From the NCBI GenBank assembly GCA_036518215.1, contig DATDNP010000201.1, forward strand, positions 24,448 to 88,447: a DNA stretch of 64,000 nt, written 5' to 3'. The notes beneath the pieces are model-generated. The model made no database searches. It saw nothing but the letters and a program-made list of their open reading frames with translations, and was not told where the DNA came from. The translations under genes and the position numbers were made by a program. Every line of letters starts with the position of its first letter. The first letter of the stretch is position 1. This stretch comes from Candidatus Limnocylindria bacterium (GTDB lineage: Bacteria > Chloroflexota > Limnocylindria > P2-11E). This document shows positions 10,193 through 64,000 of this stretch, in pieces.

Positions 10193-10204
10193 GAGAGAGC
10201 GACG

Positions 10205-11113
10205 CTAGCGGAATTGCTGCCGGAGGAACGCGAGCATCCGCGCGTCGTACTCCGCCGGCGCGGTGACATACGCCTCGGTGTGGCCGCATCCCGGCACGAT
10301 CCAGAGCTGGGTCTCCGCGTTCGCGCTCGCCGCCGCGAGATCGCGCGCGTGATGCACCGGGATGAAGTCGTCGTTCTCGCAGTGGATGAAGAAGAACGCG
10401 CGCTCGGGGTGCGCGCGCACCTGGTCGATGGGTCTGATCGTCGTATGGTCGAGGCCGAAGAGCCGAGCGGCGAGAAGGACGCCCGGCACGAAGAAGCTCG
10501 GCAGTCCGCTGTCGTGCGTGAATCCTTCGTTCACGACGCGGTCGGCGTCGGTGAACGCGGAGTCGACGATGACCGGACCGACGTCCGGCCGCAGCGCGAG
10601 CGTCTCGAGGGTCGTCGCCGCGCCCATCGAATGACCGATGAGCGCGACGTCCTTCGCGCGGTAGCCGCGTCCTTCGAGATACGCGATGGCCGCGGCGACG
10701 TCGAGCCGCTCGTACTCGCCGAGCGAGAAGCGATCGCCCTCGCTCTCGCCGCCGCCGCGGAGATCGAACGCGAGCACGCTGTAGCCGTTGGCGAGGAGGA
10801 CCTTCGCGCGATCGATCGTCTGCTGGTCGTTGAGCCTCACCGATTCTTTCCCATGCACGAAGACCACCGCGCGCGCGCCGCGCGGGAAGTACCACCCGCG
10901 CATGAGGAGGCCGTCGCTCGTCCGGAACGAGACCGCTTCGTACGGGCTGCCGACGAGCGCCGCGTGCTCGGGATCGGGGAGGTACCGCTCGTTCAGCGTG
11001 AACACGTTCGCCGCGTAGACGGAGATGCCCGCGTACGCGACGACCGCCGCGACGATGATGAGGATCGTGGCCGTGACGAGGATCTTTCGCATGCCCCGAA
11101 CGTCCGCGCGCAT
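10205..11113 (-). CDS. Alpha/beta hydrolase with an N-terminal membrane anchor
   Basis: N-terminal TM helix. GHSMG nucleophile elbow, and His near the C-terminus (PGCGH). The true start may be the internal MRKIL. Confidence 0.7.
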   Translation of the reverse strand: MRADVRGMRKILVTATILIIVAAVVAYAGISVYAANVFTLNERYLPDPEHAALVGSPYEAVSFRTSDGLLMRGWYFPRGARAVVFVHGKESVRLNDQQTIDRAKVLLANGYSVLAFDLRGGGESEGDRFSLGEYERLDVAAAIAYLEGRGYRAKDVALIGHSMGAATTLETLALRPDVGPVIVDSAFTDADRVVNEGFTHDSGLPSFFVPGVLLAARLFGLDHTTIRPIDQVRAHPERAFFFIHCENDDFIPVHHARDLAAASANAETQLWIVPGCGHTEAYVTAPAEYDARMLAFLRQQFR

Positions 11114-31420: not shown

Positions 31421-31990
31421 TTGCACGCATCGGTCATCCCGTCGATCAACGATCTCGGCGGGCTCGTCACCTATCTCTTCCGCAATCCCTACCTGTTCAT
31501 CTCGTCGACCACGGTGATGACGAGCGGGCTCCTGCTCGGTGCCGTCGTCGTGAGCATGCTTCCGCGCCGGCTCGGCATCATGCACGCCGTCGCCCCGACG
31601 CTCGCCGTGATCCTCGCCTACTTCGGGTTCGGGAGCTTCGCGCTCTCCACGGAGATCCTGCTGCGATTCCACAGCAGCATCCCCTACGAGACCGAGGTGC
31701 AGTTCGTGAGCGGCGTCGGGCATCTCCTCGAGGCGCTCGTCGGACTCGCCGTGCTGTTCCCGCACGTGCGCGATCACACGAAGCTCGAGTGGCTGTGGGC
31801 GCACACGGTCGCCCTCACCTACTGGACGTTCCAGGTCGCCGTCCTCACGCCGCCGTGGTTCTCGTTCCAGGGGCAGCGCGAGCTCGTGACCATGAGCGCG
31901 CTCCTCATGCTCGCGATCGCCGGAGGCGTGAACGCCGCGCTGTGGGTCCGTGCGGCGCGGCAGGCGCGGCGCCCTGTGGCGGTGCGGTGA
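31421..31990 (+). CDS. Hypothetical polytopic membrane protein
   Basis: TTG start. About 5 hydrophobic helices. No family recognised. The stop overlaps the tRNA 3' end. Confidence 0.4.
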   Translation: MHASVIPSINDLGGLVTYLFRNPYLFISSTTVMTSGLLLGAVVVSMLPRRLGIMHAVAPTLAVILAYFGFGSFALSTEILLRFHSSIPYETEVQFVSGVGHLLEALVGLAVLFPHVRDHTKLEWLWAHTVALTYWTFQVAVLTPPWFSFQGQRELVTMSALLMLAIAGGVNAALWVRAARQARRPVAVR

Positions 31991-32060
31991 GCCGCCCGGG
32001 ATTCGAACCCGGAACCAAAGGATTAAAAGTCCTCTGCTCTGCCGTTGAGCTAGCGGCCCG
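31988..32060 (-). tRNA. tRNA-Lys (anticodon UUU)
   Basis: The reverse complement folds as a cloverleaf. Acceptor GGGCCGC/GCGGCTC (one G-U pair), D-arm GCTC..GAGC, anticodon stem GAGGA/TCCTT, loop CTTTTAA, T-arm CCGGG-TTCGAAT-CCCGG, discriminator A. CCA is not encoded. Confidence 0.85.
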
Positions 32061-47820: not shown

Positions 47821-49836
47821 TTGCCGCGCGATCTCCCGCTCGGCAACGGAGACCTTCTCGTCACCTTCGACTCGACGTACCAGCTTCGCGACATCTACTA
47901 CCCGATGGTCGGCATGGAGGATCACACGATCGGCGACCCGAGCCGCTTCGGGGTGTGGGTGGATGGCTCGTTCAGCTGGATGTCGGACACCGGCTGGGAG
48001 CGCCAGATCGCCTACGAGCACGAGACGCTCGTCGGCGATTCCCACCTCCACCACGCGGCGCTCGGCCTCCGCCTGCATTGCCGGGACGCGGTCGACTTCG
48101 ACCGGAACATCTACTTCAAAGAGGTCACCGTCGAGGACGAGAGCGGCAAGGATCGCGATGTCCGGCTCTTCCAGCACTTCAACGCGTCGCTCTATGGGAA
48201 CGACGTCGGAGACTCGGCCTTCTACGATCCGCGGTGCCAGGCGATCGTCCACTACAAGGGCCGCCGGTACTTCCTCGTCTCGGGCACGACGGGCGGGCAC
48301 GCCTACGGCCTCACGTCGTTCGCCATCGGACAGAAGGACGCCCCCGGAAGGGAAGGCACGTGGCGCGACGCGGAGGACGGCGAGCTGTCGAGGAACGCCG
48401 TCGCGCAGGGATCCATCGACAGCGTCGGGATGCTGTCCGCGACCGTCCCCGCGAGCGGCAGCACGACGCTCGTGTTCTGGATCGCGGTCGGGCAGGCGTA
48501 CGACGAGGTGCGCGAGCTCGACAAGCTGGTGCGCGAGCGCACCCCGGCCGCGTTCCTCGCTCGGACGAAGGATTACTGGCGGCTCTGGGCGAACAAGGAC
48601 GAGACCATCGTCGATCACGTGTCGCCCGAGCTCACCAGCCTCTACAAGCGCTCCACGCTCGTGATCCGCACGCAGGTCGACAACCGCGGCGCGATCATCG
48701 CCGCGAACGACTCGGACGTCCTCCGCTTCAACCGCGATACGTATTCGTATCTGTGGCCACGCGATGGCGCGCTCGTCGCCGACGCGCTCGATCTCGCCGG
48801 GTACGGCGAGGTCACGCGCCGCTTCTTCTACCTGTGCGGCGAGCTCATCACGCGCGAGGGGTATCTGCTCCACAAGTACAACCCCGACGGGTCGCTCGGA
48901 TCGTCCTGGCACGGGTGGTCGACGCCCGAGGGGCGGCTCGAGCTTCCCATCCAGGAGGACGAGACCGGCCTGCCGATCTGGGCGCTCTGGCAGCACTACG
49001 AGCGCGACCGGGACATCGAGTTCGTTCGTCCTCTCTATCGCAAGCTCGTTCGGGGCGGCGGGGACTTCATGGCGACCTTCCGTGAGCCGAAGACGAAGCT
49101 CCCGGCCGCGTCCTTCGACCTGTGGGAGGAGCGGCGCGGCATCCACGCGTTCACGACGGCCGCCGTCGTCGCCGGTCTCACCGCCGCGCGGAACTTCGCG
49201 GTCGCGTTCGGTCAGCACGAGTACGCGAAGCGGTACGCGGTCGCGGCGCAGGAGATCCGCGATGCCGCGCTCGCGAACCTCTGGGATGCGGACCGCGGCC
49301 GCTTCGTGCGCACGATCGCCGTCCTGCCCGACGGCGTCATCGTGAAGGACGCGACCGTCGACATCTCGCTCGCGGGGATCTTCCTCTTCGGGCTCCTGCC
49401 GGCAGACGATCCGCGCGTCGTGTCGACGATGCGGGCGATCGAGGAGAGGCTCACGATCAAGACCCCCGTCGGCGGGCTCGCGCGCTACGAGAACGACGCG
49501 TACTTCCGCGTCGCCGAGGACACCGAGGCCGTCCCGGGGAACCCGTGGTTCGTCGCGACGCTGTGGCTCGCGAAGTGGTACATCGCGATGGCGCGGACAC
49601 AGGCGGACCTCCAGCGCCCGCGCGAGCTGCTGGAGTGGTGCCGCACGAAGGCGCTCCCCTCTGGGATCCTCGCCGAGCAGGTGCATCCGTACACCGGCGA
49701 GCCGCTCTCGGTCTCGCCACTCACCTGGTCGCACGCAGCGTTCGTCTCGACGGTGCAACTCTTCGCGCGCGCGTCGGCGCGCATCCGCGACGGCATCCGC
49801 ACGAAGGCGAAGGCCGCGGGCGAGGTGATCGCGTGA
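47821..49836 (+). CDS. Glycoside hydrolase family 15 (glucoamylase/glucodextranase/trehalase-like)
   Basis: N-terminal LGNGDLLVTFD motif. The (alpha/alpha)6 catalytic region has NRDTYSYLWPRDGALVA and LWEER...AFTTAAVVAGL, and the C-terminus has WLAKWY. Confidence 0.8.
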   Translation: MPRDLPLGNGDLLVTFDSTYQLRDIYYPMVGMEDHTIGDPSRFGVWVDGSFSWMSDTGWERQIAYEHETLVGDSHLHHAALGLRLHCRDAVDFDRNIYFKEVTVEDESGKDRDVRLFQHFNASLYGNDVGDSAFYDPRCQAIVHYKGRRYFLVSGTTGGHAYGLTSFAIGQKDAPGREGTWRDAEDGELSRNAVAQGSIDSVGMLSATVPASGSTTLVFWIAVGQAYDEVRELDKLVRERTPAAFLARTKDYWRLWANKDETIVDHVSPELTSLYKRSTLVIRTQVDNRGAIIAANDSDVLRFNRDTYSYLWPRDGALVADALDLAGYGEVTRRFFYLCGELITREGYLLHKYNPDGSLGSSWHGWSTPEGRLELPIQEDETGLPIWALWQHYERDRDIEFVRPLYRKLVRGGGDFMATFREPKTKLPAASFDLWEERRGIHAFTTAAVVAGLTAARNFAVAFGQHEYAKRYAVAAQEIRDAALANLWDADRGRFVRTIAVLPDGVIVKDATVDISLAGIFLFGLLPADDPRVVSTMRAIEERLTIKTPVGGLARYENDAYFRVAEDTEAVPGNPWFVATLWLAKWYIAMARTQADLQRPRELLEWCRTKALPSGILAEQVHPYTGEPLSVSPLTWSHAAFVSTVQLFARASARIRDGIRTKAKAAGEVIA

Positions 49837-50902: not shown

Positions 50903-52048
50903 CTAGGCGCTCGGCGGTAGGCGATACCCGGCGAGCGCCGGCTCACCACGCAGCCTCGCGAATCCCGGCTTGATCGTGTCGTAGATGATCGACAGGCGTT
51001 CGTCGTATCCGACGAACGCCGACTTCATCGCGTTGATGGTCAGCTTCTCGACGTCGGCGAGGTCGAGCCCGAACGCCTCCGCGAGACGATGGAACTCGTC
51101 GGAGAGCGTCACGTCCGACATGAGCCGGTTGTCGGTGTTCACCGTGACGCGGAACCGCTGCGCGATGAGCTGCCGGATGGGATGCGTCGCGAGCGACGGG
51201 ACCGCGCCCGTATCGACGTTGCTCGACGGGCAGAGCTCGAGCGGGATGCGTTTGTCGCGGACGTATGTCGCGAGCGGGCCGAGCGCGACGACCGCGTCGC
51301 CTGCGAGCGTCATGTCCTCGATGAGGCGCACGCCATGGCCGATGCGATGAGCGCCGCAGACCTGGATCGCCTGCCAGATGGACGGCGGGCCGAAGCCCTC
51401 GCCCGCGTGGATGGTGATGTTGAAGTTCTCGCGATGGCACAGGTCGAACGCCTCGAGGTGCGCCTTCGGCGGATTCCCCGCCTCCTCTCCGGCGATGTCG
51501 AACCCGACGACCCCGCGGTCGCGGAAGGCGACCGCGAGCCGCGCCATCTCGACCGAGTCGGTGCGATCGCGCATCGCGCATACGATCTGCCGCAGGACGA
51601 TGCGGTACCGCCGCTCGGCCGCCGCGAACCCGCGCTCGACCGCCTCGACGACCCGCTCGAGCGTCATCCCGCGGGCGGTGCTGAACACCGGTGCGTATCG
51701 CACCTCGGCGTAGACGACGCCGTCGTGCGCGAGGTCCTCGCCGCACTCGAACGCGACGCGCTCGATCGCGTCCGGCGCCTGCATGACCGCGATCGTGTGC
51801 GCGAACCCCCGTAGATAGAGCGACAGGGAGCCGCTCGCCGCGCTCTCGTGGAACCACCGTCCGAGCTCGCCGGGATCGTTCGTCGGGAGCCCACGGTGAC
51901 CCTGCTCCCGCGCGAGCTCGACGATCGTCGCCGGACGGAGTCCGCCGTCGAGATGGTCGTGGAGCAGAACTTTCGGTGCGGCATGCAGCGTCTCGCGCGG
52001 GATCACGCCCAGATGATGCGCCAGGTGCGCCACCGTGCTGACTTTCAC
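50903..52048 (-). CDS. add: Adenosine deaminase
   Basis: PKVLLHDHLDGG..., HAGE and SLNTDDP-like motifs (VNTDN). Confidence 0.85.
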   Translation of the reverse strand: MKVSTVAHLAHHLGVIPRETLHAAPKVLLHDHLDGGLRPATIVELAREQGHRGLPTNDPGELGRWFHESAASGSLSLYLRGFAHTIAVMQAPDAIERVAFECGEDLAHDGVVYAEVRYAPVFSTARGMTLERVVEAVERGFAAAERRYRIVLRQIVCAMRDRTDSVEMARLAVAFRDRGVVGFDIAGEEAGNPPKAHLEAFDLCHRENFNITIHAGEGFGPPSIWQAIQVCGAHRIGHGVRLIEDMTLAGDAVVALGPLATYVRDKRIPLELCPSSNVDTGAVPSLATHPIRQLIAQRFRVTVNTDNRLMSDVTLSDEFHRLAEAFGLDLADVEKLTINAMKSAFVGYDERLSIIYDTIKPGFARLRGEPALAGYRLPPSA

Positions 52049-52080: not shown

Positions 52081-55000
52081 GTGGGGGATCAAGGGACGGC
52101 CCGGGACGAACGGCGCGTGGCCGAGCTCGAAGCCGAGCTCGCGCGGGCGCGCGAGCAGCAGGCCGCGATCGCCGGGGTGCTGCAGGCGATGGCGGGATCG
52201 CACGCCGACGAACAGGCCATCCTCGACGCGATCGCGACGAGCGCCGTCCGGTACTGCGGCGCGAACGACGCGCAGGTCTGGCTCGTCCGCGGCGACGAGC
52301 TCGAGCGCGCCGCGCATCACGGCCCGGTCGCGAACCTCGAGGGACGGATCCGGCTCGACCCGACGTCCGTCGCGGGACGCGCGATCGGCGAGCGCCGCAC
52401 GATCCACATCAGCGACGTCCTCGGTCCCGAGGGCGATGCGTATCCGCAGACACGCGCGCGCTTCGCGCAGATGGGCCACCGCGCGCTGCTCGTCGCCCCG
52501 GTCGTGCGCGACGGGGTCGCGATCGGCTCGCTCAACCTGCGGAAGCACGCGCCCGAGCCTTTCACCACGGAGCAGATCCAGCTGCTCGAGGCGTTCGCGG
52601 ACCAGGCCGCGATCGTGATCGAGAACGTTCGCCTGCACCGCGAGACGACAGCCTCACTCGAGCGGCAGACGGCGATCAGCGACCTCCTCGGCACGATCAG
52701 CCGATCGGCGTTCGACCTCGATGCCGTCCTCACCACGATCTGCGTCCGCGCCGTGGCGCTCGTCGGCGCACAGGGCGCGTCGATCGGGATCCGCGAGGGC
52801 GACGAGATCGTCATCATCGCGACCGGCGGCGGCCCGGCGACGCTCGGCAAAGGCGAGCGCTGGCTGATCGACGACACCACCGTCGGCGGACGTGCGTTCC
52901 TGGACGGTAAGCGCCACTACGCTCCCGATGTCACAAAAGACCCGGCGCTTCCCCAGGGAGGGGCGCAGACCCGTCTCGCGATCCCATTCGTGCGCGACGG
53001 CACCGTGACCGGTGTGCTCTTCACGGCACACCGCGAGGCGAACGCGTTCGACGAACGCGACATCCAGCTGCTCGAGGTGTTCGCCGATCAGGCGGCCATC
53101 GCGATGGAGAACGTACGTCTCTACCGCGAGACGAAGGAGTCGCTCGAGCAGCAGACCGCGATCAGCGAGATCCTGCAGGTGATCTCGAGCAGCCCGACCG
53201 ACATACAGCCTGTGCTCGACGCGATCGCGCGGAACGCGGCGCGTTACTGCCTCGCGGAAGACTGCGGCGTAGCGCTCATCCGTTCCGACGGCCTGCTCGA
53301 GCAGGTCGCGCAGTACGGTCCGATCGCGCTGGACATCGCGCCATGGCCGGTCGATCGCACCTCCGTGCGTGGCCGCGCGATCGTGGACCGGCAGGTGATC
53401 CACGTACCGGACATGGCCTCCGAGAGCGAGGCCGAGTACGCCATCGGCGTTCGGCGCTCACGCGAGCTTGGCCAACGCTCGATACTCGCCGCGCCGCTCC
53501 TGCGAGAGGGCAGGCCGCTCGGCGCGATCGGGCTGCGACGCACCGAGGTCCGGCCCTTCACGGACAAGCAGATCGCGCTGCTGCGCACGTTCGCAGATCA
53601 GGCCGCCATCGCGATCGAGAACGTCCGCCTGTTCAACGAGACGAAGCAGGCGCTCGAGCAGCAGACCGCGATCAGCGAAGTGCTGCGCGCGATCTCGAGC
53701 TCGCCGACCTCGTCGCAGCCGGTCCTCGATGTCGTGGCCACGAACGCCGTGCGCTTCTGCGAGGCCGAGCACGCCGTCGTGTGCCTCATCCGCGACGGGC
53801 TCCTGACGCCCGTCGCCCACGGCGGCCTCGACTGGGAGCCCGTGAAGCCGTTCGTCATCGACCGCACGACGGTGACCGGTCGCGCGGTCGTGGACCGACG
53901 GATCACTCACGTCGCAGACCTCTGGGCGCTCGAATCCGAGTATCCGCTCGGCTATGCGCAGGCGCGCGAGGGCAACGAACGCGCGCTCGTCGCCGCGCCG
54001 CTCATGCACCAGGATGAGGTCGTCGGCGCGATCATCCTCCGGCGGACGCACCCGACGCCGTTCACCGAACGACAGATCGATCTGCTCGCGACGTTCGCCG
54101 ATCAAGCCGCGATCGCCATCTCGAACGTGCGCCTCTTCAACGAGACGAAGGAAGCGCTCGAGCAGCAGACCGCGATCGCCGACATCCTGCGCGTCATCTC
54201 CAGCTCGCCGACCGACCTGCAGCCGGTCGCGGACGCGATCGCGAAGAGCGCGCTCCGTTTCGCCGGCGCAGAGGACGCATCGCTCGTCTTGGTGAAGGAC
54301 GGAGTCTTGGTGCCGGCCTCTCACCGCGGACCGATGGTGATCCCTTTGACGGTGCCGGCGGACCGGCGTTCGGTCACCGGTCGTGCGATCCTCGACCGCA
54401 AGACGGTCCACGTCGGGGACGTCATGGCGAACGAGGAATTTCCGCAGAGCACGGAGAACGCGGCCAGCAGCGGCCAGCGCGCCGTGCTCGCCGCGCCGCT
54501 CATGCGCGAGGGGACGGCCATCGGCGCGATCCTGCTCCGCAAGACCGAGCCAAAGCCGTTCACCGACGGGCAGGTCGCCCTCGTGGAGACGTTCGCATCG
54601 CAGGCCGTGATCGCGTTCGAGAACGTGCGTCTCTTCAATGAGACAAAGGTCGCTCTCGAGCGTCAAACGGCGACGGCGGAGGTCGTCAAGCTCATGAGCA
54701 GCACCGCGTTCGACCTCCGGCGCGTGCTCGACATCGTCATCGGACACGCGACGCAGCTCGCCCAAGCCGACGCTGGGTTCATCTATCAGGCCGACGGTGA
54801 GTACCTGCGCATGACGGCGGCGTACGGCGAGCACGCCGAGGCGATGCGCGAGTGGCAAGCGGAACATCCGATCCGCGGCGACTATCTCGGGTCGGCCACC
54901 GGTCGCGCCTTCGCGGAGCGCCGGACGGTGCACATCTCGGACGTCGAAGCCGACGCGAGCTACACGTATGGCGAGGCGAAGCAGCTCGGCGCTTTCAGGA

Positions 55001-56436
55001 CGCTCCTCTCCGTGCCGCTCGTGCGCGACGATCGAGCCGTCGGCACCTTCTCGCTGTGGCGCACGACGCCACGTCCATTCACGGCAGAGGAGATCGCGCT
55101 CGTCGAGAGCTTCGCCGATCAGGCGCTCATCGCGATCGAGAACGTTCGCCTCTTCGACGAGACGAAGGGCGCCCTCGAGCGACAGACGGCACTGGGCGAG
55201 ATCCTGCGCGTCATGGCCAGCTCGCCCACGAGCGAGCAGCCGGTCCTCGACGCCATCGCCCACAACGCCGTGCGCTTCTCGGGCGCCGAGGACGCGGCGG
55301 TCGCGCTCCGTGGCGAGAAGACATATCGCTTCGTCGCGCACGAGGGTGCGCTCCTACCCGACTTTGGCGTCGATCGGCCGCTCGACGAATCGACGGTGAG
55401 CGGTCGGGCGATGCTCCGAGCCGAGCTCGTCCACGTTCCGGATATCCGTGAGCGCGCCGCGGAGTTCCCGCGCAGCTACGAGTTCGCCCAGCGCAGCGGC
55501 CAGCGCGCGATGCTCTCGGTCCCGATGCTGCACGACGGCACGGCGATCGGCTCGATCGTGCTCCGCCGCAAGGACCCGCGCGCGTACTCCAACGAGGAGA
55601 TCGAGATCGCGCGCGCCTTCGCGGACCAGGCGGCGATCGCGATCGAGAACGTGCGGCTCTTCCACGAGATCCAGGAGAAGAGCGCACAGCTCGAGATCGC
55701 GAACCGCCACAAGAGCGAGTTCCTCGCGAACATGAGCCACGAGCTGCGGACGCCGCTGAACGCGATCATCGGGTTCAGCGAGGTGCTGTTGCAGGGCATC
55801 TTCGGCGACGTGAACGAGAAGCAGCGCGAGTATCTCGACGACGTGCTGTCGTCGGGAAAGCACCTGCTCTCGCTCATCAACGACATCCTCGACCTCTCGA
55901 AGATCGAAGCGGGCCGGATGGAGCTCGAGGTCTCGACGTTCTCTCTCACCGCCGCGCTCGAGAGCGGGCTCACGATCGTCCGCGAGCGGGCCGCGCGGCA
56001 CGGGATCGCGCTCGCAGCCGTGATCCCGGACGATCTTCCGACCGTGGACGCCGACGAGCGCAAGGTGAAGCAGATCCTCTACAACCTCCTCTCGAACGCC
56101 GTGAAGTTCACTCCCGACGGCGGACGCGTGGAGGTGCGTGTGCGTCGCGTAGGCGACGACGTCGAGATCGCCGTGAAGGACAACGGCATCGGGATCGCAC
56201 CCGCGGATCAGCCCAAGGTGTTCGAGGAGTTCCGGCAGGTCGGGCGCGAGCGGTCGCGCGAAGGCACCGGCCTCGGCCTCACGCTCACGAAGCGCTTCGT
56301 CGAGCTGCACGGCGGCCGGATCTGGCTCGCGAGCGAGGTCGGCGCGGGGAGCACGTTCACGTTCACCCTCCCGCTGCGCCGCGACGCCCGCCGCGGGGAC
56401 CCTGCCAGGGAGATCACGCCCGCGCAGCCATCCTGA
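52081..56436 (+). CDS. Soluble giant sensor histidine kinase with seven tandem GAF domains (1451 aa)
   Basis: No TM helix. Seven GAF units of about 180 aa, each followed by a near-identical linker (F(A/T)[30 protein letters not shown]). Then HisKA ([19 protein letters not shown]) and HATPase_c ([16 protein letters not shown]). Confidence 0.9.
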   Translation: MGDQGTARDERRVAELEAELARAREQQAAIAGVLQAMAGSHADEQAILDAIATSAVRYCGANDAQVWLVRGDELERAAHHGPVANLEGRIRLDPTSVAGRAIGERRTIHISDVLGPEGDAYPQTRARFAQMGHRALLVAPVVRDGVAIGSLNLRKHAPEPFTTEQIQLLEAFADQAAIVIENVRLHRETTASLERQTAISDLLGTISRSAFDLDAVLTTICVRAVALVGAQGASIGIREGDEIVIIATGGGPATLGKGERWLIDDTTVGGRAFLDGKRHYAPDVTKDPALPQGGAQTRLAIPFVRDGTVTGVLFTAHREANAFDERDIQLLEVFADQAAIAMENVRLYRETKESLEQQTAISEILQVISSSPTDIQPVLDAIARNAARYCLAEDCGVALIRSDGLLEQVAQYGPIALDIAPWPVDRTSVRGRAIVDRQVIHVPDMASESEAEYAIGVRRSRELGQRSILAAPLLREGRPLGAIGLRRTEVRPFTDKQIALLRTFADQAAIAIENVRLFNETKQALEQQTAISEVLRAISSSPTSSQPVLDVVATNAVRFCEAEHAVVCLIRDGLLTPVAHGGLDWEPVKPFVIDRTTVTGRAVVDRRITHVADLWALESEYPLGYAQAREGNERALVAAPLMHQDEVVGAIILRRTHPTPFTERQIDLLATFADQAAIAISNVRLFNETKEALEQQTAIADILRVISSSPTDLQPVADAIAKSALRFAGAEDASLVLVKDGVLVPASHRGPMVIPLTVPADRRSVTGRAILDRKTVHVGDVMANEEFPQSTENAASSGQRAVLAAPLMREGTAIGAILLRKTEPKPFTDGQVALVETFASQAVIAFENVRLFNETKVALERQTATAEVVKLMSSTAFDLRRVLDIVIGHATQLAQADAGFIYQADGEYLRMTAAYGEHAEAMREWQAEHPIRGDYLGSATGRAFAERRTVHISDVEADASYTYGEAKQLGAFRTLLSVPLVRDDRAVGTFSLWRTTPRPFTAEEIALVESFADQALIAIENVRLFDETKGALERQTALGEILRVMASSPTSEQPVLDAIAHNAVRFSGAEDAAVALRGEKTYRFVAHEGALLPDFGVDRPLDESTVSGRAMLRAELVHVPDIRERAAEFPRSYEFAQRSGQRAMLSVPMLHDGTAIGSIVLRRKDPRAYSNEEIEIARAFADQAAIAIENVRLFHEIQEKSAQLEIANRHKSEFLANMSHELRTPLNAIIGFSEVLLQGIFGDVNEKQREYLDDVLSSGKHLLSLINDILDLSKIEAGRMELEVSTFSLTAALESGLTIVRERAARHGIALAAVIPDDLPTVDADERKVKQILYNLLSNAVKFTPDGGRVEVRVRRVGDDVEIAVKDNGIGIAPADQPKVFEEFRQVGRERSREGTGLGLTLTKRFVELHGGRIWLASEVGAGSTFTFTLPLRRDARRGDPAREITPAQPS
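55690..56380 (+). repeat. Duplicated kinase-core segment (near-identical at DNA level to 59115-59800)
   Basis: The HisKA-HATPase_c regions of the two adjacent kinases share long identical nucleotide runs, e.g. aaccg(c/t)cacaagagcgagttcctcgcgaacatgagccacgagctgcg. This points to a recent tandem duplication. Confidence 0.7.
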
Positions 56437-56523
56437 GAACGGTCGCGGCCCGCCGATCTCGCGAGCGTTACGGCGGCGCCTGACGCGATACAGGCGGGCC
56501 TAGCATGCGGGCGGAGGGAGCGG

Positions 56524-59500
56524 GTGGACCTCGTTCGCCGAGCTGAATGGCTCGTGGAACGACCGTGGCGACTCGTCGCCATCGTGGCCGTCGCAGTCGC
56601 GCTGCCGATCCTTGTCCTCGGTGAGATATCGAACGAACAGACGCGCGCCCGGGACGTATTGGCGCGCGCCGAGGCGGGCGAACGCGATGCGGCAGCGGCG
56701 ACCGAAGTGCTCGCGACCCGACTGACCTCGATCGAACGAGCCGTCGTAACGACGGGCTCCCGGGATCCGCTGGGCGTTCCCACGCCGCTCATCAACGCCG
56801 TCGAGCGACTGGATAGCGAGGCCATCGAGGCGGAGCTCGCTGCGGTGTGGCCGTATCGCGATCCGTCGGTGATCCGGCTGGCGGTCGTCGATCCGGACGC
56901 GCACGTCATCGGGCAGACGCCGCAGCCTCTCAGTGGTGTTCGCACCGTTGCGTCCTATAGCAGCGCGTTCGCACTGAGCGCGCCGGAAGCGAGCGACGTC
57001 CATGTCGACGCGGGCGACCCTCGCCTCGAGATCGGGACGCCCATCGAAGGAGCCGAACGGCGCGGGTATCGCCTCATCGCTACGGTGAGTCTCCGCGCGC
57101 TCGCCTCCGACACACTCGCGCCGCTCGCGTTCGTGTATCCGGACGTGTATCTCATCGACACGCGCGGGCGTCTTGCGCTGCGCGGCTCGCGTTTGCTCGC
57201 GGACGAACAACTCTTGCGCGATGTGACCGCCGCCACGGCTGTGATGCCCGGCGCATCGAGCGTGATCGATCCGATCGATCCTTCGTATCGAATACTCGCG
57301 ACCGCGCGGATGCCCGAATTCGGTTGGTCGATCGTCGTGCTCGACCCGGGCGTCTCCAACGCGACCCTGGATGCCAGCCTTGCGCAGCAGCGTGCACTGC
57401 GGATCGGCCTTGTTGTCGTGCTTCTTGTCGGCTCGGTGATCGTGGGCAACACGTCGAGCGCGACGATCCGGCGCCGTCGCGAGGCACAAGAGGCTCTCGA
57501 ACAGCAGGTCGCGACGAGCGCGGTGCTGCGTGCCATCAGCGCGACGCATGACGACGTGCAGGCCGTGCTGCAGTGTGTCGTGGATGAGGCGCTGCGCCTC
57601 TGTGACGCGGAGAGCGCGACCTTCTATCGGAGCGACGGCGAGGATCGCGTGCTCATGGCTGTCGCAGGTCGCCACCCGGAGTCTGTCCCCATCGGCGAGC
57701 GCATCGCGAACACGCCGACGACGCTGCTCAGCTTGGCCCTTCGAGAAGGGAAAACGTTCCACACGCGCGACATGTCGAGTGAGGAGACGCGCCGGCTGGT
57801 CCGGCCCGACGAAACGCAGGAGGAATGGCAGCGCACGATCCTCGCATCGTGGCCAGGACTGTCCCGGCTCGCGGTTCCCGTGATGCAGGATGGCAAGGCG
57901 GTCGGTGTCATCCGCGTCGATCGCCGTGAGCGCGGCGGCTTCACACCGCAGCAGATCAAGCTCATCGAGTCCTTCGCGGCGCAGGCCGCGATCGCGATGG
58001 AAAACGTTCGTCTCTTCAATGAGACGCGAGAGGCGCTCGATCGACAGACCGCCATTAGTGAAGTCCTGAAGACGATCTCGCAGAGCGTCTTCCAACTGGA
58101 CTCGACGCTCCAGACCGTCGTCGAGAACGCGGCACGACTGTGCGACGCGGACGCAGCCTGGATGGTCGAATGGGCCGGTGCGGGCTACACGGGCCTCGCC
58201 CGATACGCGCGCACCCCAGAGATAGCCGCGCTGCTCGAAAGGGCACGTAAGTCGCAGCCCGGCGTCGTCGCTCCAGCCGAACGGCATCGCATCGCCGGCC
58301 GGATGTTCCTCGAACGTCGCACGATCGGCGTGGCTGACATAGCGAACGAGCCGGAGCTCTCAGGGTCATGGACGGCCCTCGATATCGGTGCGCGGTCCGT
58401 GCTCGGCGTACCTGTCGTGAGCGATGGCGTGCCTCTCGCGGGAATCGTGCTTGCGCGGGTTACCGTACGCCCGTTCTCCAAGAGCGAGACGGAACTCGTC
58501 GAGACGTTCGCCGATCAGGCGGCGATCGCCATCAAGAACGTCCGTCTCTTCACCGGTACGAAGGAGGCGCTCGAGCAGCAGACCGCGGTGAGCGATGTCC
58601 TCAAGACGATCAGCCGGAGCGTGTTCGAGCTGGCGCCGACCCTACGCACGGTCGTCGAGAACGCGGCACGCATCTGCGACGCTGATGCCGGCTGGATGAC
58701 TCGCACCTCTCTGTCGGGACACAGCTCGGGAGCGCGCTACGGCCGCACGCCCGAGATCGCACGCGCCGTCGAGCTCGCGTATGAGAGGTCCGTCGGGGAC
58801 GTCTCCGGGCCCGATCCCAGTAGGATCGGGGACCGCGTCTACCTCGAACGGCGGCCGATCGTCGTCGACGACATCGCGGCCGACGCCACCCTCGCGAACT
58901 CCTACATCGCGCACGGGATCAAGTCACGCTCCGTGCTTGCGGTGCCGGTCCTTGGCGACGACGCCGTGCTCGGCGCGATCATCCTCGCTCGTCTGACGGT
59001 GAGACCGTTCTCTGAACGCGAAACGCAGCTCGTTCAGACGTTCGCTGACCAAGCCGCGATCGCGATCCAGAACGTTCGTCTCTTCAATGAGGTCGAAGAC
59101 AAGTCGCGGCAGCTCGAGGCCGCCAACCGTCACAAGAGCGAGTTCCTCGCGAACATGAGCCACGAGCTGCGAACGCCGCTCAACGCGATCATCGGCTTCA
59201 GCGAGGTGCTTCTCCAAGGGCTCTTCGGTGACATCAACGCAAAGCAGCGCGAATACCTCGACGACGTGCTGACCTCCGGGAAGCATCTGCTGTCGCTCAT
59301 CAACGACATCCTCGACCTCTCTAAGGTCGAGGCGGGCCGCATGGAGCTGGAGCTGTCGCGCTTCTCGGTCGCGACGACGGTCGATACCTCGCTCACGATC
59401 ATCCGGGAGCGTGCTGCGCGTCACAGCATCGCACTGAGGGCCGTTCTCCCGAACGATCTGCCCGAGATCGAGGCCGACGAGCGGAAGGTCCGCCAGATCC

Positions 59501-59826
59501 TCTTCAACCTCCTGTCGAACGCCGTGAAGTTCACGCCGGATGGCGGCACAATCAGCCTTCACGTGCGCCGCGAGGCCGGCGGGTTGTGCTTCGCGGTGTC
59601 GGACACGGGGATCGGGATCGCGCCGGAGGATCAGGTGAAGGTGTTCGAAGAATTCCGTCAGGTCGGCCGCGAGCGCGCGCGCGAAGGGACCGGGCTGGGC
59701 TTGACGCTCACAAAGCGCTTCGTCGAGCTCCATGGCGGCCGGATCTGGGTCGAGAGCGAGACGGGAAAGGGCAGCACGTTCTCGTTCACCCTTCCGCTGA
59801 CGCAGCCGTCGGCGGCGCCGGCATGA
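56524..59826 (+). CDS. Membrane sensor histidine kinase with an extracytoplasmic sensor domain, three GAF domains and a kinase core (1100 aa)
   Basis: TM helix at about aa 15-35 and again at about aa 290-312, with a ~250-aa extracytoplasmic region between them. Then 3x GAF with the same linker motif and a HisKA-HATPase_c core paralogous to 52081..56436. Confidence 0.9.
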
Positions 59827-60200
59827 GCGACCTCGTTCTCATCATCGAGGACAACGAGAAGAACATGAAGCTCGCGCGCGACCTCCTGCGCTTTCACGGC
59901 TTCGACACGATCGAGGCGACGAGCGCGGAGGATGGCCTCGCGCTCGCGCGGGAGCGACAGCCGCGGCTCGTCCTCATGGACATCCAGCTTCCCGGGATGG
60001 ACGGCGTCACAGCGCTGGGGCGATTGAGGTCGGACGGCACGACCGCCGCGATCCCCGTCGTCGCGATGACGGCCTCTGTGATGAAGGAGGACCGCGAGCG
60101 CTTCGACAAGGCGGGCTTCGACGGGTTCCTCATGAAGCCGATCGACGTGCGCGCGTTCCCGCAGCAGGTGCGCGACGCGATCGCGCGCGGCCGCGCGTGA
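59823..60200 (+). CDS. Single-domain response regulator (CheY-like receiver)
   Basis: ATGA overlap with the kinase stop. [11 protein letters not shown]...[13 protein letters not shown]...KPID. 125 aa with no output domain. Confidence 0.85.
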
Positions 60201-61237
60201 GCGATCGCCCGAAGATCCTCGCCGTCGACGACACCCCGGAGAACCTCCGGCTCCTCGACGCGCTCCTCGCGCCGCAGGGCTACGAGCTCGTGCCGGCGTC
60301 CTCCGGACGCGAGGCGCTCGCGCTCGTGCCGGAGCGGAGGCCGGACCTGCTCCTCGTCGACCTCGTGATGCCGGAGATGAACGGCTTCGAGGTCACCAAG
60401 GCCGTCCGCGCCGACGACACCTGGAAGCATCTGCCGATCATCATCATCACCGCGACGGGCGGCGCCGATCTCGTTCGGGCGCTCGAGGCGGGCGCGGACG
60501 ACTACGTGTCGAAGCCGTTCGACAAGAACGAGCTGCTCGCGCGCGTCCGGTCGCTCATCCGCGTGAAGAACTACTACGACACCGTGCAGCGGCAGCGCGA
60601 GGAGCTGTCGCGCTTCTTCTCGCCCGCGATCGCGCACCTCATCACGAGCGACGAAGGGAAGCGCATGCTCGACGGCCATCGTCGCGCCGTCACGGTCGTC
60701 TTCTGCGACCTGCGCGGCTTCACGGCGTTCTCGGAGACGGTGGAACCCGAGGAGGTGCTGGGCGTGCTGCGCGAGTACCACCGCGCGATGGGCGAGCTCA
60801 TCGCAGCGCACGGCGGCACGCTCGAGCACTTCGAGGGCGACGGCTTCATGGTGTTCTTCAACGATCCGATCGAAACGCCTCAGCACGAGCATGTCGCCGT
60901 GCGTATGGCCGTGGCGATGCGAGACCGCTTCGACGAGCTCGCCGCGCCGTGGCGCAGGAAGGGCTACGACCTCGCGTTCGGTGTCGGCGTTGCGGTGGGC
61001 TACGCGACGCTCGGACGCATCGGCTATGAGGGCCGCTACGACTACGCCGCGATCGGCAACGTGACGATCCACGCGTCGCGCCTCATGGCACGAGCGCAGG
61101 GCGGCGAGATCCTCATCACGCAGCGCCTGAACGCCGCGATCGAGGACGAGTTCGAGACGGCGGCCGTCGGCGAGCTCGAGCTGAAGGGCGTCACACGACC
61201 GGTCGCGGCGTTCAACGTCATTGGGAGGCGGAGATGA
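60197..61237 (+). CDS. Response regulator with a class III adenylate/guanylate cyclase (CHD) output domain
   Basis: GTGA overlap. REC (ILAVDDTPEN...LLLVDLVMPEMNG...KPFDKNEL). CHD (VTVVFCDLRGFTAFSE...GTLEHFEGDGFMVFFNDP...GVGVAVGYATLGRIG). Confidence 0.85.
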   Translation: MSDRPKILAVDDTPENLRLLDALLAPQGYELVPASSGREALALVPERRPDLLLVDLVMPEMNGFEVTKAVRADDTWKHLPIIIITATGGADLVRALEAGADDYVSKPFDKNELLARVRSLIRVKNYYDTVQRQREELSRFFSPAIAHLITSDEGKRMLDGHRRAVTVVFCDLRGFTAFSETVEPEEVLGVLREYHRAMGELIAAHGGTLEHFEGDGFMVFFNDPIETPQHEHVAVRMAVAMRDRFDELAAPWRRKGYDLAFGVGVAVGYATLGRIGYEGRYDYAAIGNVTIHASRLMARAQGGEILITQRLNAAIEDEFETAAVGELELKGVTRPVAAFNVIGRRR

Positions 61238-63366
61238 GCGACATCTACGAGACGATCAGTACGCGGCTCGATTACGGCTCGTTCGTCCCGCGGCCCATCG
61301 GCGATGTCGAGCGCGCGGACCTGAAGCGGCGGGACGGCACGATGTACACCGTCCTGAAGAACCCGCACGGCGACCGTGCCGCCGGCCTCTACATCCGGCT
61401 CGAGCCGGATGACGTCGCGCTCTTCGAGCTGATGGACGGCAACCGCACGATCCAAGACATCCTTGTCAATTACCTGGCGACGCACGGCGTGCTCGCCGTC
61501 GACCGCCTCGCGCGCCTCACGGCCGCGCTGTCGGCGAACGGCTTCTTCGGCGACGAGCGCCCGCGCTTCTACGAGCGCCTCGCCATGAACCGCCAGCTCC
61601 GCGATCCGCTCGTTCGTCTTTCGCTGTCGCTGCGGCGGCTCATCACGTGGGACATCGCGCGCTGGTCGAACGCCGATTCGCTCGTCCAGCGCGTGTACCG
61701 CGCCGGAGCGTGGCTGGCGTTCACGCCCGTCGGCGCGGCGCTCATCGCGGTCCTCTGCGTCGCCGGGATCGTCGCGTGGGTCCGCGAGGTCAGCGTCGGT
61801 CGCCACACGCTCGTCACGCTCGACGGGTCATTCGTGCTCGGGATCGTCGCCCTCATCCTCCTCCAGGTGCTATCGATCTCTGTGCACGAGGCAGGGCACG
61901 CGCTCGCGATCGCGCATTACGGGCGTCGCGTCCGACGCCTCGGTCTCGCGGTCTATTACCTCTTCCCGTGCGTCTACGTTGACAGCACCGACATGACGAT
62001 GGCATCACGAAAGGCGCGCATCGTCGTGTCCCTCGCCGGTCCGGTGGGCGGTCTCACGGTGAGCGCACTGTGCGCATTCGTGGCGATCGCCGACGGCGGA
62101 GTCCTCGGCAGCATCGCCTTCAAAGCATCGTCGCTCTTCCTTTTCCAATTCGCGCTCAACCTCATGCCGATCCTCGAGCTCGACGGCTACTACATCCTCG
62201 TCGACCTGCTCGACGCTCCGCTCCTCCGACAGCGCGCGCTCGCGTTCGCGCGGGGCGGCGTCATGCGGAAGCTTCGACGGCGCGAGCGGTGGTCGCCGTC
62301 GGAGATCGGGCTCGGCGTGTACGGCCTTCTCGCGATCGCCACCTCCTTCCTGATGATCGGCTTGTCGCTCGCGCTCTGGGAGTCACGCGTCTCGATCGCG
62401 GCACGCGAGCTGCTCGCAGCGGGGCCGCTCGGAGCGCTCGCGCTGGCGCTCCTCGTGCTCGTGTTCATCGGTCCACTCATCGTGGCGCTCACGATCCGCG
62501 TGGTCGGCTGGGGCAGGACCTTCGCGAAGGGGCGCGCACGGCGCGTACGCCGGCGTGAGCAGCAGGCGCTCGTCGAACGCGCACGCATCCTCTCGCGCGT
62601 GCCGTTCCTCGCGAGTCTCGCAGGGAATGCGCTCATCGCGATCGCGTCACACCTGAGCGAGGAGCGTGTGGACGCGAATACGAACGTCGTGACGATCGGC
62701 GAGCCCGGCCAGCGTTTCTACGTCGTGCGCTCGGGCCGTCTCGAGGTGCTCGACGCGAGCGGGCGCGTCATCGGCACGCTCGCGCCGGGTGACGGCTTCG
62801 GAGAGCTCGCGCTGCTCGACCACCGGCCGCGGACGGCGACGGTGCGCGCGACCGAGCCGAGCGAGCTCTGGTCCCTCGACCGCGGCCACTTCGAGCGTTG
62901 GATCCGCGAGCGGTACGAGATCGCCGCGCGGATCCGCGCGTCGGCTGAGGAGCGCGACATGCTCGCGAAGCTGCCCTTCTTCAAGGGACTGGAGCCTGCC
63001 GAGCTCGACCGGATCGTGCCGCATCTCAAGCTGACTCGCGTCGCCGCGGGCGAGGCGGTCTTCCGCGAAGGCGATCCCGGCGACCGCTACTACGTCATTC
63101 GCGAGGGCGAGGCGGACGTGAGCGTCGGCGGGAGCCTCGTGGCCCACCTCGGACCGGGCAGCGGCTTCGGGGAGCTCGCGCTGCTTTTCGGGAAGCCGCG
63201 TACAGCCACGGTGACCGCTACGAAGGATCTTGTCCTGGCCTCCCTCGGGCGCAGCGAGTTCGGCTGGCTCGTACGGGAATCAGGTGAGACGATGGGTGAG
63301 TTCAAGACACGAACGGCGCATTATGTCGGTTCCGCCGGCCTCGGGACGGCGGTGAGGGGGGCTTAG
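61234..63366 (+). CDS. Site-2 protease (peptidase M50) fused to two C-terminal cyclic-nucleotide-binding domains
   Basis: ATGA overlap. M50 zinc motif (HEAGHAL) in a TM helix and the second S2P motif (NLMPILELDG), with multiple TM helices. Then 2x CNB with GFGELALL...RTATVRA and GFGELALLFGKPRTATVTA. Confidence 0.85.
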   Translation: MSDIYETISTRLDYGSFVPRPIGDVERADLKRRDGTMYTVLKNPHGDRAAGLYIRLEPDDVALFELMDGNRTIQDILVNYLATHGVLAVDRLARLTAALSANGFFGDERPRFYERLAMNRQLRDPLVRLSLSLRRLITWDIARWSNADSLVQRVYRAGAWLAFTPVGAALIAVLCVAGIVAWVREVSVGRHTLVTLDGSFVLGIVALILLQVLSISVHEAGHALAIAHYGRRVRRLGLAVYYLFPCVYVDSTDMTMASRKARIVVSLAGPVGGLTVSALCAFVAIADGGVLGSIAFKASSLFLFQFALNLMPILELDGYYILVDLLDAPLLRQRALAFARGGVMRKLRRRERWSPSEIGLGVYGLLAIATSFLMIGLSLALWESRVSIAARELLAAGPLGALALALLVLVFIGPLIVALTIRVVGWGRTFAKGRARRVRRREQQALVERARILSRVPFLASLAGNALIAIASHLSEERVDANTNVVTIGEPGQRFYVVRSGRLEVLDASGRVIGTLAPGDGFGELALLDHRPRTATVRATEPSELWSLDRGHFERWIRERYEIAARIRASAEERDMLAKLPFFKGLEPAELDRIVPHLKLTRVAAGEAVFREGDPGDRYYVIREGEADVSVGGSLVAHLGPGSGFGELALLFGKPRTATVTATKDLVLASLGRSEFGWLVRESGETMGEFKTRTAHYVGSAGLGTAVRGA

Positions 63367-63367
63367 G

Positions 63368-63583
63368 GTGGACTGCTGGGTCTGCGAGCGCACGGCGCTC
63401 GGGGCGTGCCGGTTCTGCGGCCGCGGCACCTGCCGCGACCACGCGCGCACGCACCCCTTCGTCATCGAAGTGTTCCGCGGACGCAAGCACGAGACGCTGC
63501 GGGCGCTCGTCGTCGAGGACGCGCTCCACTGTGGCGTGTGCAAGCCCCGCAGCGAGCCCGTCGAGCTCCCCGAGCTCGAGTGA
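63368..63583 (+). CDS. Small Cys-rich zinc-ribbon-like protein
   Basis: GTG 1 nt after the protease stop. 71 aa with CWVCE..13..CRFCGRGTC..25..HCGVCK and an acidic tail. This is a predicted Cys4-type zinc ribbon. Confidence 0.5.
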   Translation: MDCWVCERTALGACRFCGRGTCRDHARTHPFVIEVFRGRKHETLRALVVEDALHCGVCKPRSEPVELPELE

Positions 63584-63703
63584 GGAGGCCTACCTGAGAG
63601 CTACTGTCATCACGATCACACAGGGGCAGCCATGGCGATGGACGTATGGGGAGCGTGGCGGGGCCAGAGTTCCGTCAACAGGCGATGGGAGGCGAAACAG
63701 AGA

Positions 63704-64000
63704 TGTCCAAGGAAGCTCTCGCGAAGGTGGTCCAGCGGGCGATCAGTGACGCGGCGTTCCGCCGTCAGATCTCGAGCGATCCGACGGGTGCGCTGCGCGG
63801 CTTCGACCTGACGTCGGACGAGACCGCGGCCATCCGCGCGGCGGACGCTGGCAAGCTCAGCGCGCTCGGCATCGACCAGCGCATGAGCAAGGCGTTCACC
63901 CTCGGCGGGAACGCGGACTCTCCGAGCATGGTCGGCGGCACCGACATCAACACGCTCGGCAGCGCGATCACGACCGGAAGCGCGGGCACGGCCGGCGGCG
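63704..64000 (+). CDS. Protein with a Nif11/NHLP-like N-terminal leader domain (5' part; paralog of 32241..32828)
   Basis: MSKEALAKVVQRAISDAAFRRQISSDPTGALRGFDLTSDETAAIRAADAGKLSALGIDQRMSKAFTLGG is about 60% identical to the N-terminus of the 32241 gene. It runs off the window end. Confidence 0.5.

Follow-up and report, generated by a model that had tools for sequence, protein, structure and literature searches.

An intramembrane metalloprotease with tandem cyclic-nucleotide-binding domains and its constant partner genes in Limnocylindria: a candidate nucleotide-gated leader protease

What does an intramembrane protease cleave, and what switches it, when it carries two cyclic-nucleotide-binding (CNB) domains and is encoded at the end of a chain of signaling genes? 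The question is raised by a 64,000-nucleotide stretch of DNA (hereafter the window; G+C ~70%) from a Candidatus Limnocylindria bacterium (GenBank assembly GCA_036518215.1, contig DATDNP010000201.1, positions 24,448 to 88,447), in which two histidine kinase genes, a receiver gene and a receiver-cyclase fusion gene precede the gene for a protease of the M50 family. An earlier note, made from the sequence alone, had read this order as a linear cascade in which kinase-controlled cyclic nucleotide synthesis gates a site-2 protease. We show here the gene anatomy and synteny of the locus, and we find that the kinase-cyclase-protease chain is not what stays invariant; the constant set is made up of the M50-CNB protease, a small Cys-rich protein (Cys71), one or more precursor-like proteins of the NHLP clan and a CRP-family regulator. 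On balance, we are inclined to read the protease as a cyclic-nucleotide-gated leader protease that acts on the neighboring precursors, with the kinase and cyclase genes as a plug-in source of signal.

The conserved unit around the protease

The core of the locus contains the following features.

61234-63366 (+): intramembrane metalloprotease of 710 residues with the domain order putative recognition element-M50-CNB-CNB, six predicted transmembrane (TM) segments and both termini predicted to be cytoplasmic
61303-61542 (+): putative PqqD-like recognition element for ribosomally made, post-translationally modified peptides (RiPP recognition element, RRE), protease residues ~24-103, from Pfam matches in the family and AlphaFold2 topology
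61885-61899 (+): HEAGH zinc-binding and catalytic motif, protease residues 218-222
62158-62187 (+): NLMPILELDG, the second site-2 protease signature, protease residues 309-318
62662-62910 (+): CNB domain 1, residues 477-559, cassette FGELALLDHRPRTATV, with E524 and R533 invariant
63001-63273 (+): CNB domain 2, residues ~590-680, cassette FGELALLFGKPRTATV, with R656 invariant
63368-63583 (+): Cys71, a predicted two-zinc cross-brace finger protein of 71 residues
63605-63620 (no strand): CRP-type palindrome TGTCATCACGATCACA, ~98 nucleotides 5' of the precursor start codon
63703-64000 (+): Os1348-family, NHLP-clan precursor-like gene (NF038399), running off the window end; leader-like domain of ~63 conserved residues, LGG at residues 67-69 and a variable tail free of Cys

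To define which genes travel with the protease, we gathered six loci from genomes and 80 from metagenomes, the metagenome scan using an alignment as its query and a genome scan with the single protein giving five useful loci, and dereplication at 97% nucleotide identity yielded 65 locus groups (loci carry L numbers below). Presence and absence were counted from tblastn and hidden Markov model matches because the gene caller, based on G+C content at third codon positions, was crude and at times put an opposite-strand open reading frame (ORF) in place of Cys71 or the protease gene. Motif invariance was judged over 17 protease homologs of 62-87% identity. The M50-CNB family itself is larger: a word-indexed search gave 413 matches, nearly all from Limnocylindria or Chloroflexota metagenomes and including an identical protein of a Candidatus Limnocylindria metagenome-assembled genome; with E <= 1e-30 as the limit, an exhaustive search found 890 cluster representatives, part of which match through the CNB repeats alone. 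Database names for these proteins are generic, e.g., "cyclic nucleotide-binding domain-containing protein".

Cys71 is the closest companion of the protease. We found its gene beside the protease gene at all 58 loci with enough sequence to judge, separated by 3-45 nucleotides, and at these loci Cys71 is 71-92% identical, compared to 55-74% for the protease. Identity across phyla is 59-90%, and the Cys71 family, with 230 matches that are all annotated as hypothetical, reaches Acidimicrobiales and Solirubrobacterales. Pfam returned only a sub-threshold match to a Cys/His finger. Eight zinc ligands are conserved (C3, C6, C14, C17, C22, H25, C55 and C58), together with W4, F16, R19, P30 and a C-terminal P..LPEL motif, and a confident structure model (pLDDT 88.6) weakly resembles FYVE/PHD cross-brace fingers. 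The earlier note had called this a Cys-rich zinc-ribbon protein; the ligand set describes a two-zinc cross-brace finger and not a simple zinc ribbon. Cys71 is probably a cytoplasmic subunit or regulator of the protease.

The second constant partner lies 3' of Cys71. An NHLP-clan gene of the "Os1348 family" follows Cys71 in 53 of 53 loci, in one to three tandem copies, and the copy in the window, incomplete at the window end, scores 62.1 bits on NF038399 (cutoff, 40). Gene order past window position 64000 was inferred from the nearest relative, L094 (87% identity), where a histidine kinase, receiver, receiver-cyclase, protease, Cys71 and a 219-residue NHLP-clan protein are encoded in that order, followed by a partial 231-residue gene on the opposite strand, with no family identified, at the place where the CRP-family gene sits in other loci. 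The partners share a conserved block (residues 9-63, ending ..GxDxRMSK), after which conservation falls sharply; LGG or LAG often stands at residues 67-69, and a variable, acidic, low-complexity tail of 120-500 residues follows, rich in Ala, Gly, Asp, Ser and Thr and containing neither Cys nor a hydrophobic segment. The C-terminus of many tails resembles G(D/E)GP(N/E)I(T/Q)P, with loose conservation.

The last member of the unit is missing from the earlier note's account. A gene for a CRP-family regulator (cNMP_binding plus HTH_Crp_2) is convergent behind the precursor gene in 29 of 31 loci. Between Cys71 and the precursor gene, the palindrome TGTCATCACGATCACA is the sole match to TGTNA-N6-TNACA in the 64 kb, where 0.10 would be expected, and 60 of 66 loci have its core, GTnA-N6-TnAC, at the corresponding place in the alignment (background 0.26 per kb, ~2 expected). 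No such box was found 5' of the protease gene, the core motif occurring within 300 nucleotides of it at three loci only. The box and the adjacent CRP-family gene suggest that the precursor may own a nucleotide-dependent promoter.

The protease, its ligand and its substrate

Pfam confirmed every domain type that the earlier note had assigned along the chain (GAF, HisKA, HATPase_c, Response_reg, Guanylate_cyc, M50 and CNB). The match to Peptidase_M50 (PF02163) reached 34.5 bits against a gathering score of 27.2 and covered only profile positions 3-102 of 221. The catalytic motifs HEAGH and NLMPILELDG are intact, and H218, E219, H222, N309, P312 and D317 are invariant. When we compared residues 50-406 to NCBIfam, the top match was the daptide biosynthesis intramembrane metalloprotease NF041824 (E = 3e-35), followed by the YydH/LiaK epipeptide maturation protease NF058609 (E = 1e-16), and these two models are also the best curated matches for distant relatives of the protease. 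Judged by these profiles, the M50 part is a member of the RiPP leader peptidase branch (daptide, YydH-like) and not a signaling site-2 protease of the RseP/SpoIVFB type; the M50 assignment in the earlier note stands, while its site-2 protease label needs this correction.

Hydropathy and the positive-inside rule gave six TM segments, with HEAGH falling at the end of TM2 (residues 199-217) and the Lys/Arg-rich loops on the same side as the RRE, the active site and the CNB domains, all three of which are predicted to face the cytoplasm. An N-terminal domain of ~100 residues is homologous throughout the family. In 18 of 31 diverse family members it matches Pfam PqqD (best E = 1.4e-7), and an AlphaFold model of residues 26-101 of the window protein has three strands followed by three helices, the beta3-alpha3 topology of an RRE; one permuted relative has the order CNB-CNB-PqqD-M50. 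RREs bind RiPP leaders. Profile matches of this region to designed Symfoil proteins in the PDB were discarded as spurious, and a fold search with the full protease model returned tandem-CNB proteins only.

Two stretches of the protease match Pfam cNMP_binding (137 bits), and both CNB domains retain the phosphate-binding cassette FGELAL..PR[TS]ATV. G523, E524 and R533 in the first domain and G646 and R656 in the second are invariant, and E647 is Glu or Asp, so the cassette Arg that the earlier note had singled out for checking is present in both (R533 and R656); none of the checks by which that note could have been refuted told against the observation itself. The retained Gly-Glu and Arg-[ST]-Ala are the residues that contact the ribose and the cyclic phosphate, and the tandem is closest to the regulatory subunits of PKA and PKG, at 25-30% identity. 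The domains of this family also match TIGR03896 ("cyc_nuc_ocin"), the relative P0213 reaching 150.5 bits against a cutoff of 161. Members of this protease clade carry their CNB domains C-terminally, N-terminally or behind an insert of ~400 residues, and fusion that recurs in this way speaks for a functional connection of the protease and CNB activities. The most numerous distant relatives (P0134, P0140 and P0129, ~1050-1150 residues) have the ~400-residue insert between M50 and CNB, which matches nothing in Pfam or NCBIfam; other fusion variants add FHA (P0139) or AhpC/Redoxin (P0136).

From the cassettes, cAMP or cGMP is a fairly likely ligand of the tandem. The alternative is that the CNB domains bind another molecule, such as ppGpp, or serve structure or dimerization, the cyclases then feeding the CRP regulator and not the protease. 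CNB folds are known to take other ligands (PMC2938197), and the cNMP-type domain of HetC from Nostoc PCC 7120 took ppGpp, GTP and GDP, not cAMP (PMC10986499); at most loci, moreover, there is no cyclase within 10 kb. The last two observations also tell against the gating that we propose. We nevertheless consider another ligand unlikely, since both cassettes keep their ribose and cyclic-phosphate contacts without change in 17 homologs, the tandem most resembles PKA and PKG regulatory subunits, and cyclase adjacency is repeated and independent (see below).

The earlier note left open what the protease cleaves; the genes that constantly accompany it direct attention to the NHLP-clan gene beginning at 63703, a little past the genes described there. 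Leader-bearing proteins in the constant company of a protease with a putative RRE are the foremost candidates for its substrate, and we regard the NHLP-clan protein as the probable substrate. The pairing persists where protease identity is down to 31-38%, in further phyla and where the domains are ordered differently (L091, L092 and L093). In L093, a Chloroflexota relative of 38% identity, a 78-residue NF038399 peptide follows the protease; in L092, a Solirubrobacterales variant of 1151 residues, a Cys71 homolog lies upstream and a 286-residue NF038399 protein downstream; and in L091, a 59-residue NHLP-like peptide is encoded directly upstream. The L092 partner (9761-10621) has the same NF038399 leader and a repetitive tail rich in Pro, Gly and Met (PPPPGWDPSMGPPPG...) that is not acidic, indicating that tail composition is lineage-specific.

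Cys71 could itself be the true target, or a gate comparable to the inhibitor BofA, with the NHLP-clan gene merely a co-regulated neighbor. Its place beside the protease at 58 of 58 loci with gaps of 3-45 nucleotides, its 59-90% identity across phyla, and the presence of Cys71 with no recognized NHLP-clan gene among the neighbors in L088 and L090 all fit that view. However, the putative RRE predicts a leader-type substrate, an NF038399 protein accompanies the protease in L093, where Cys71 is not adjacent, and a strongly conserved, folded two-zinc domain suits a subunit better than a protein that is cut, leaving this alternative quite unlikely beside cleavage of the NHLP-clan proteins.

Some distant loci encode other small ORFs near the protease gene. 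In L088 (5460-5591) and L090 (3323-3472), which are of the Acidimicrobiales type, ORFs of 43-49 residues that start M(S/T)DKKI.PT.P replace the NHLP-clan gene near M50-CNB, one immediately upstream of it and the second 2.4 kb upstream, and they may represent another type of precursor. A small ORF with a DFNGDFNGDFNDDFNGDFNGDYNGDYN repeat lies near the distant M50-CNB/Cys71 pair of L091 (5582-5899) and may not be a real gene.

The upstream kinase and cyclase cassette

The genes upstream of the protease, all on the same strand, are as follows.

52081-56436 (+): HK1, a soluble histidine kinase of 1451 residues with seven GAF domains, HisKA and HATPase_c (ORF and Pfam)
56524-59826 (+): HK2, a histidine kinase of 1100 residues with a ~320-residue N-terminal region that has no Pfam match, three GAF domains, HisKA and HATPase_c
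59823-60200 (+): REC, a stand-alone receiver of 125 residues (Pfam Response_reg)
60197-61237 (+): REC-cyclase, a receiver fused to a class III cyclase, 346 residues (Pfam)

Pfam found seven GAF stretches in HK1, with HisKA at 86 bits and HATPase_c at 120 bits, and three GAF stretches with HisKA and HATPase_c in HK2. The N-terminal ~320 residues of HK2 (56524-57540) have a hydrophobic start followed by a region without a family match, and may be a novel extracytoplasmic sensor domain. The stand-alone REC scores 84.5 bits on Response_reg, and its acidic pocket, D53, Thr and Lys could be read by eye. In REC-cyclase (Response_reg, 103 bits; Guanylate_cyc, 74 bits), the receiver is PleD-like and its acceptor Asp aligns with D53 of PleD. 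The earlier note had described stop-start overlaps at every junction. Three such 4-nucleotide overlaps are present (HK2/REC, ATGA; REC/REC-cyclase, GTGA; REC-cyclase/M50, ATGA), but the M50/Cys71 junction reads TAG-G-GTG, a 1-nucleotide spacer, and HK1 and HK2 lie 87 nucleotides apart.

The kinase/REC/REC-cyclase cassette turned out not to be a conserved part of the system. It is co-directional and upstream only in the subclade of the window (L002, L005/9, L008, L010, L011 and L094), the cyclase gene of L002 and L008 being a REC-GAF-cyclase. In a second subclade (L034 and L057), the same three genes are divergent upstream; a divergent gene for a cyclase-AAA_16-TPR protein occurs in a third; a tandem cyclase is encoded at one locus; and in the largest subclade pnt transhydrogenase genes are present, while within 10 kb cyclases are absent. 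L006 carries the window's upstream flanking genes and lacks the cassette, so the 9-kb cassette represents an insertion or a deletion. The cassette is an accessory input of the window's lineage and lies outside the core module.

Cyclases are nonetheless found next to this protease more often than elsewhere. Of 43 dereplicated loci, 10 have a cyclase domain whose end lies no more than 1 kb upstream of the protease gene, compared to only four cyclase domains in the 347 kb situated over 3 kb away from it, and the 64-kb window holds one. The cyclase-protease link drawn by the earlier note is therefore borne out to the extent that at least four cyclase arrangements adjoin M50-CNB genes in different lineages, but 10 of 43 loci is a minority: the association stands well over background, in several arrangements, and is not obligatory.

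The nearest solved relative of the window cyclase is CyaB of Pseudomonas aeruginosa (3r5g; E = 7e-34), and in alignment with it the window enzyme retains both metal-binding Asp residues and the transition-state Arg. The canonical residues are absent at three other positions, where His replaces the substrate-defining Lys/Glu, Ala replaces Asp/Thr and Ile replaces the catalytic Asn. The enzyme may therefore be inactive or make another product, a point against the mechanism we propose, and the earlier note's statement that it makes cAMP or cGMP does not hold as given, since its product and even its activity are uncertain. The same His/Ala/Ile set occurs in the REC-cyclases of L002, L008, L010, L034 and L057 (with Gly for Ala in L034), which argues for selection and not decay. 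Rv1900c of Mycobacterium tuberculosis tolerates Asn/His at two of the changed positions, making activity of the window cyclase possible. Canonical class IIIb adenylate cyclase residues are present in the cyclase-AAA-TPR proteins of five of six aligned loci and in the second domain of the tandem cyclase, and they are the best hint that cAMP is the usual ligand. The cyclase-AAA-TPR protein of L040 is non-canonical, with Ala and Ile and with Lys kept. We consider it an even question whether the cassette supplies the module's nucleotide.

These observations bear on the cascade originally proposed, in which the kinases act through REC-cyclase and its nucleotide on a CNB-gated site-2 protease that, in the classical manner, cuts a regulator tethered to the membrane (an anti-sigma factor, for example). 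That REC, REC-cyclase and the protease are translationally coupled, that the M50 and CNB motifs are intact, and that the three-gene cassette occurs beside the protease in two orientations would all suit such a cascade. Yet Pfam found no PDZ or CBS domain in the protease, no sigma or anti-sigma gene or membrane-tethered regulator is conserved nearby across the 65 loci, the M50 domain falls in with RiPP leader peptidases and is joined to a putative RRE, TM segments are absent from the conserved partners, and the cassette is missing at most loci. We judge this cascade very unlikely, and classical site-2 protease signaling was rejected because the protease has neither PDZ nor CBS and sigma/anti-sigma partners are lacking.

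A Pycsar-like anti-phage system, in which the nucleotide from an unusual cyclase activates a CNB-bearing membrane effector, is most improbable and was rejected: PADLOC matched the cyclase to PycC models (best E = 1e-18) and the CNB domains to PycTIR effector models (E = 1e-20), and the cyclase has non-canonical residues at substrate positions, but a canonical adenylate cyclase from another locus matches the PycC model PDLC00734 better (E = 3e-27), indicating that the similarity is generic, the module is inherited vertically, keeps a stable syntenic place among housekeeping genes and is mostly cyclase-free, and the cyclase is under two-component control.

A candidate mechanism and its precedents

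In the mechanism that we propose, a cyclic nucleotide, most likely cAMP, would work at two levels. Together with the CRP homolog it would turn on transcription of the precursor, and on the CNB tandem it would release or activate the protease. The RRE would grip the precursor leader, and the cut would fall near the end of the conserved block (..RMSKAF.LGG, a candidate site), freeing the tail, which might, speculatively, be passed across the membrane. Cys71 would probably serve the protease as a cytoplasmic subunit or regulator that it cannot do without. For the lineage of the window, the translationally coupled cassette would equip the module with a nucleotide source of its own, under phosphorylation control. 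Tentatively, the whole may form a coherent feed-forward loop, in which a cyclic nucleotide both gates a protease that matures, and perhaps exports, a hitherto unrecognized class of NHLP-led proteins with very long, acidic, disordered tails and drives their transcription through CRP; the signal in the window would come from a phosphorylation-controlled, non-canonical cyclase whose product may not be cAMP or cGMP.

Several further observations weigh against this proposal. The protease falls below the equivalog cutoffs of both RiPP protease models (NF041824, 122.1 against 300 bits; NF058609, 61 against 225). The window protein's own N-terminal domain gives no Pfam PqqD match, and PDB profile matches of the RRE region to TfuB1 and PaaA are non-significant (E = 0.36-0.78). 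The full-length protease model is of medium confidence (pLDDT 69; predicted TM-score, pTM, 0.33). The LGG of the precursors is only ~60-65% conserved, so that the cleavage site is a guess, and a "core" of 120-500 residues far exceeds known RiPP cores. Finally, we found no RiPP-modifying enzyme or exporter conserved nearby, modification enzymes having been checked within 10 kb.

The earlier note had considered cyclic-nucleotide control of intramembrane proteolysis to be undescribed. In the library available to us, which is incomplete, we found no paper on an M50-CNB fusion or on such control, but a partial precedent exists. HetC of Nostoc PCC 7120, the closest precedent, has a CNB-fold domain fused to a membrane machine that cleaves leaders on the cytoplasmic side, and its N-terminal cNMP-type domain is essential for function (PMC10986499). 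It differs in being a C39 cysteine peptidase with an ABC transporter, where the window protein has an M50 metalloprotease, and in having one CNB-type domain in place of a tandem, with ppGpp and not cAMP as the ligand bound (PMC10986499). An RRE, a Cys71 partner and a CRP box are not reported for HetC.

M50 proteases that remove RiPP leaders are also known, among them EpeP, TglG/TmoG and the daptide protease (PMC10885120). Like the window protease, these enzymes (NF041824; YydH/LiaK/EpeP, NF058609; TglG/TmoG) have an intramembrane HExxH and are encoded beside precursor peptides. They differ in that the window protease lies under the family cutoffs and known members are not described with CNB domains, and the window module has no nearby modifying enzymes and has precursor tails of 120-500 residues. 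SpoIVFB of Bacillus subtilis is likewise an M50 protease that trims an N-terminal pro-sequence off a non-transmembrane protein (PMC11486902, PMC9042235). It also resembles the window protease in its C-terminal cytoplasmic nucleotide-binding regulatory domain and in being restrained by small partner proteins. That domain, however, is a CBS domain, whose ligand is ATP, and not a CNB tandem; the substrate is a sigma factor, there is no RRE, and its inhibitors, BofA and SpoIVFA, reside in the membrane and have no relationship to Cys71. TIGR03896 is a curated tandem-CNB family tied to bacteriocin and NHLP-type export, but its members are stand-alone soluble proteins without a protease domain. Among the NHLP/Nif11 RiPP precursors (TIGR03793 and NF038399), the likeness lies in the leader-like domain of the partners, which passes NF038399 and is often followed by a Gly-Gly-like motif. 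In contrast to those precursors, the window's partners have long, acidic, Cys-free, low-complexity tails and not a short modifiable core, and neither a C39-ABC exporter nor modification enzymes lie near the module.

The best-known bacterial receptors of cAMP and cGMP are CRP-family transcription factors, and intramembrane proteolysis is otherwise governed by site-1 cleavage, inhibitor proteins or ATP. If our reading is right, a protease set directly by a cyclic nucleotide would be a post-translational, irreversible output of cyclic nucleotide signaling, and the nucleotide would be a new regulatory input for intramembrane proteolysis. Sensor and enzyme are present in the module together with candidates for the substrate, the partner subunit and the operator. 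It also flags an uncharacterized class of proteins, with NHLP-type leaders on low-complexity tails of 120-500 residues, that occurs in abundant uncultured soil Chloroflexota (Limnocylindria) and in Actinomycetota.

Farther upstream, an adenosine deaminase gene (50903-52048, minus strand) is divergent from HK1 and is itself preceded by a GH15 glycoside hydrolase gene (47821-49836, plus strand); a flank with a glycoside hydrolase and adenosine deaminase is common to the window, L006 and L011. Rfam gave no match in the gene-chain region, indicating that no riboswitch is present there, and the sole Rfam match in the window is a single tRNA gene at 31988-32059 on the minus strand.

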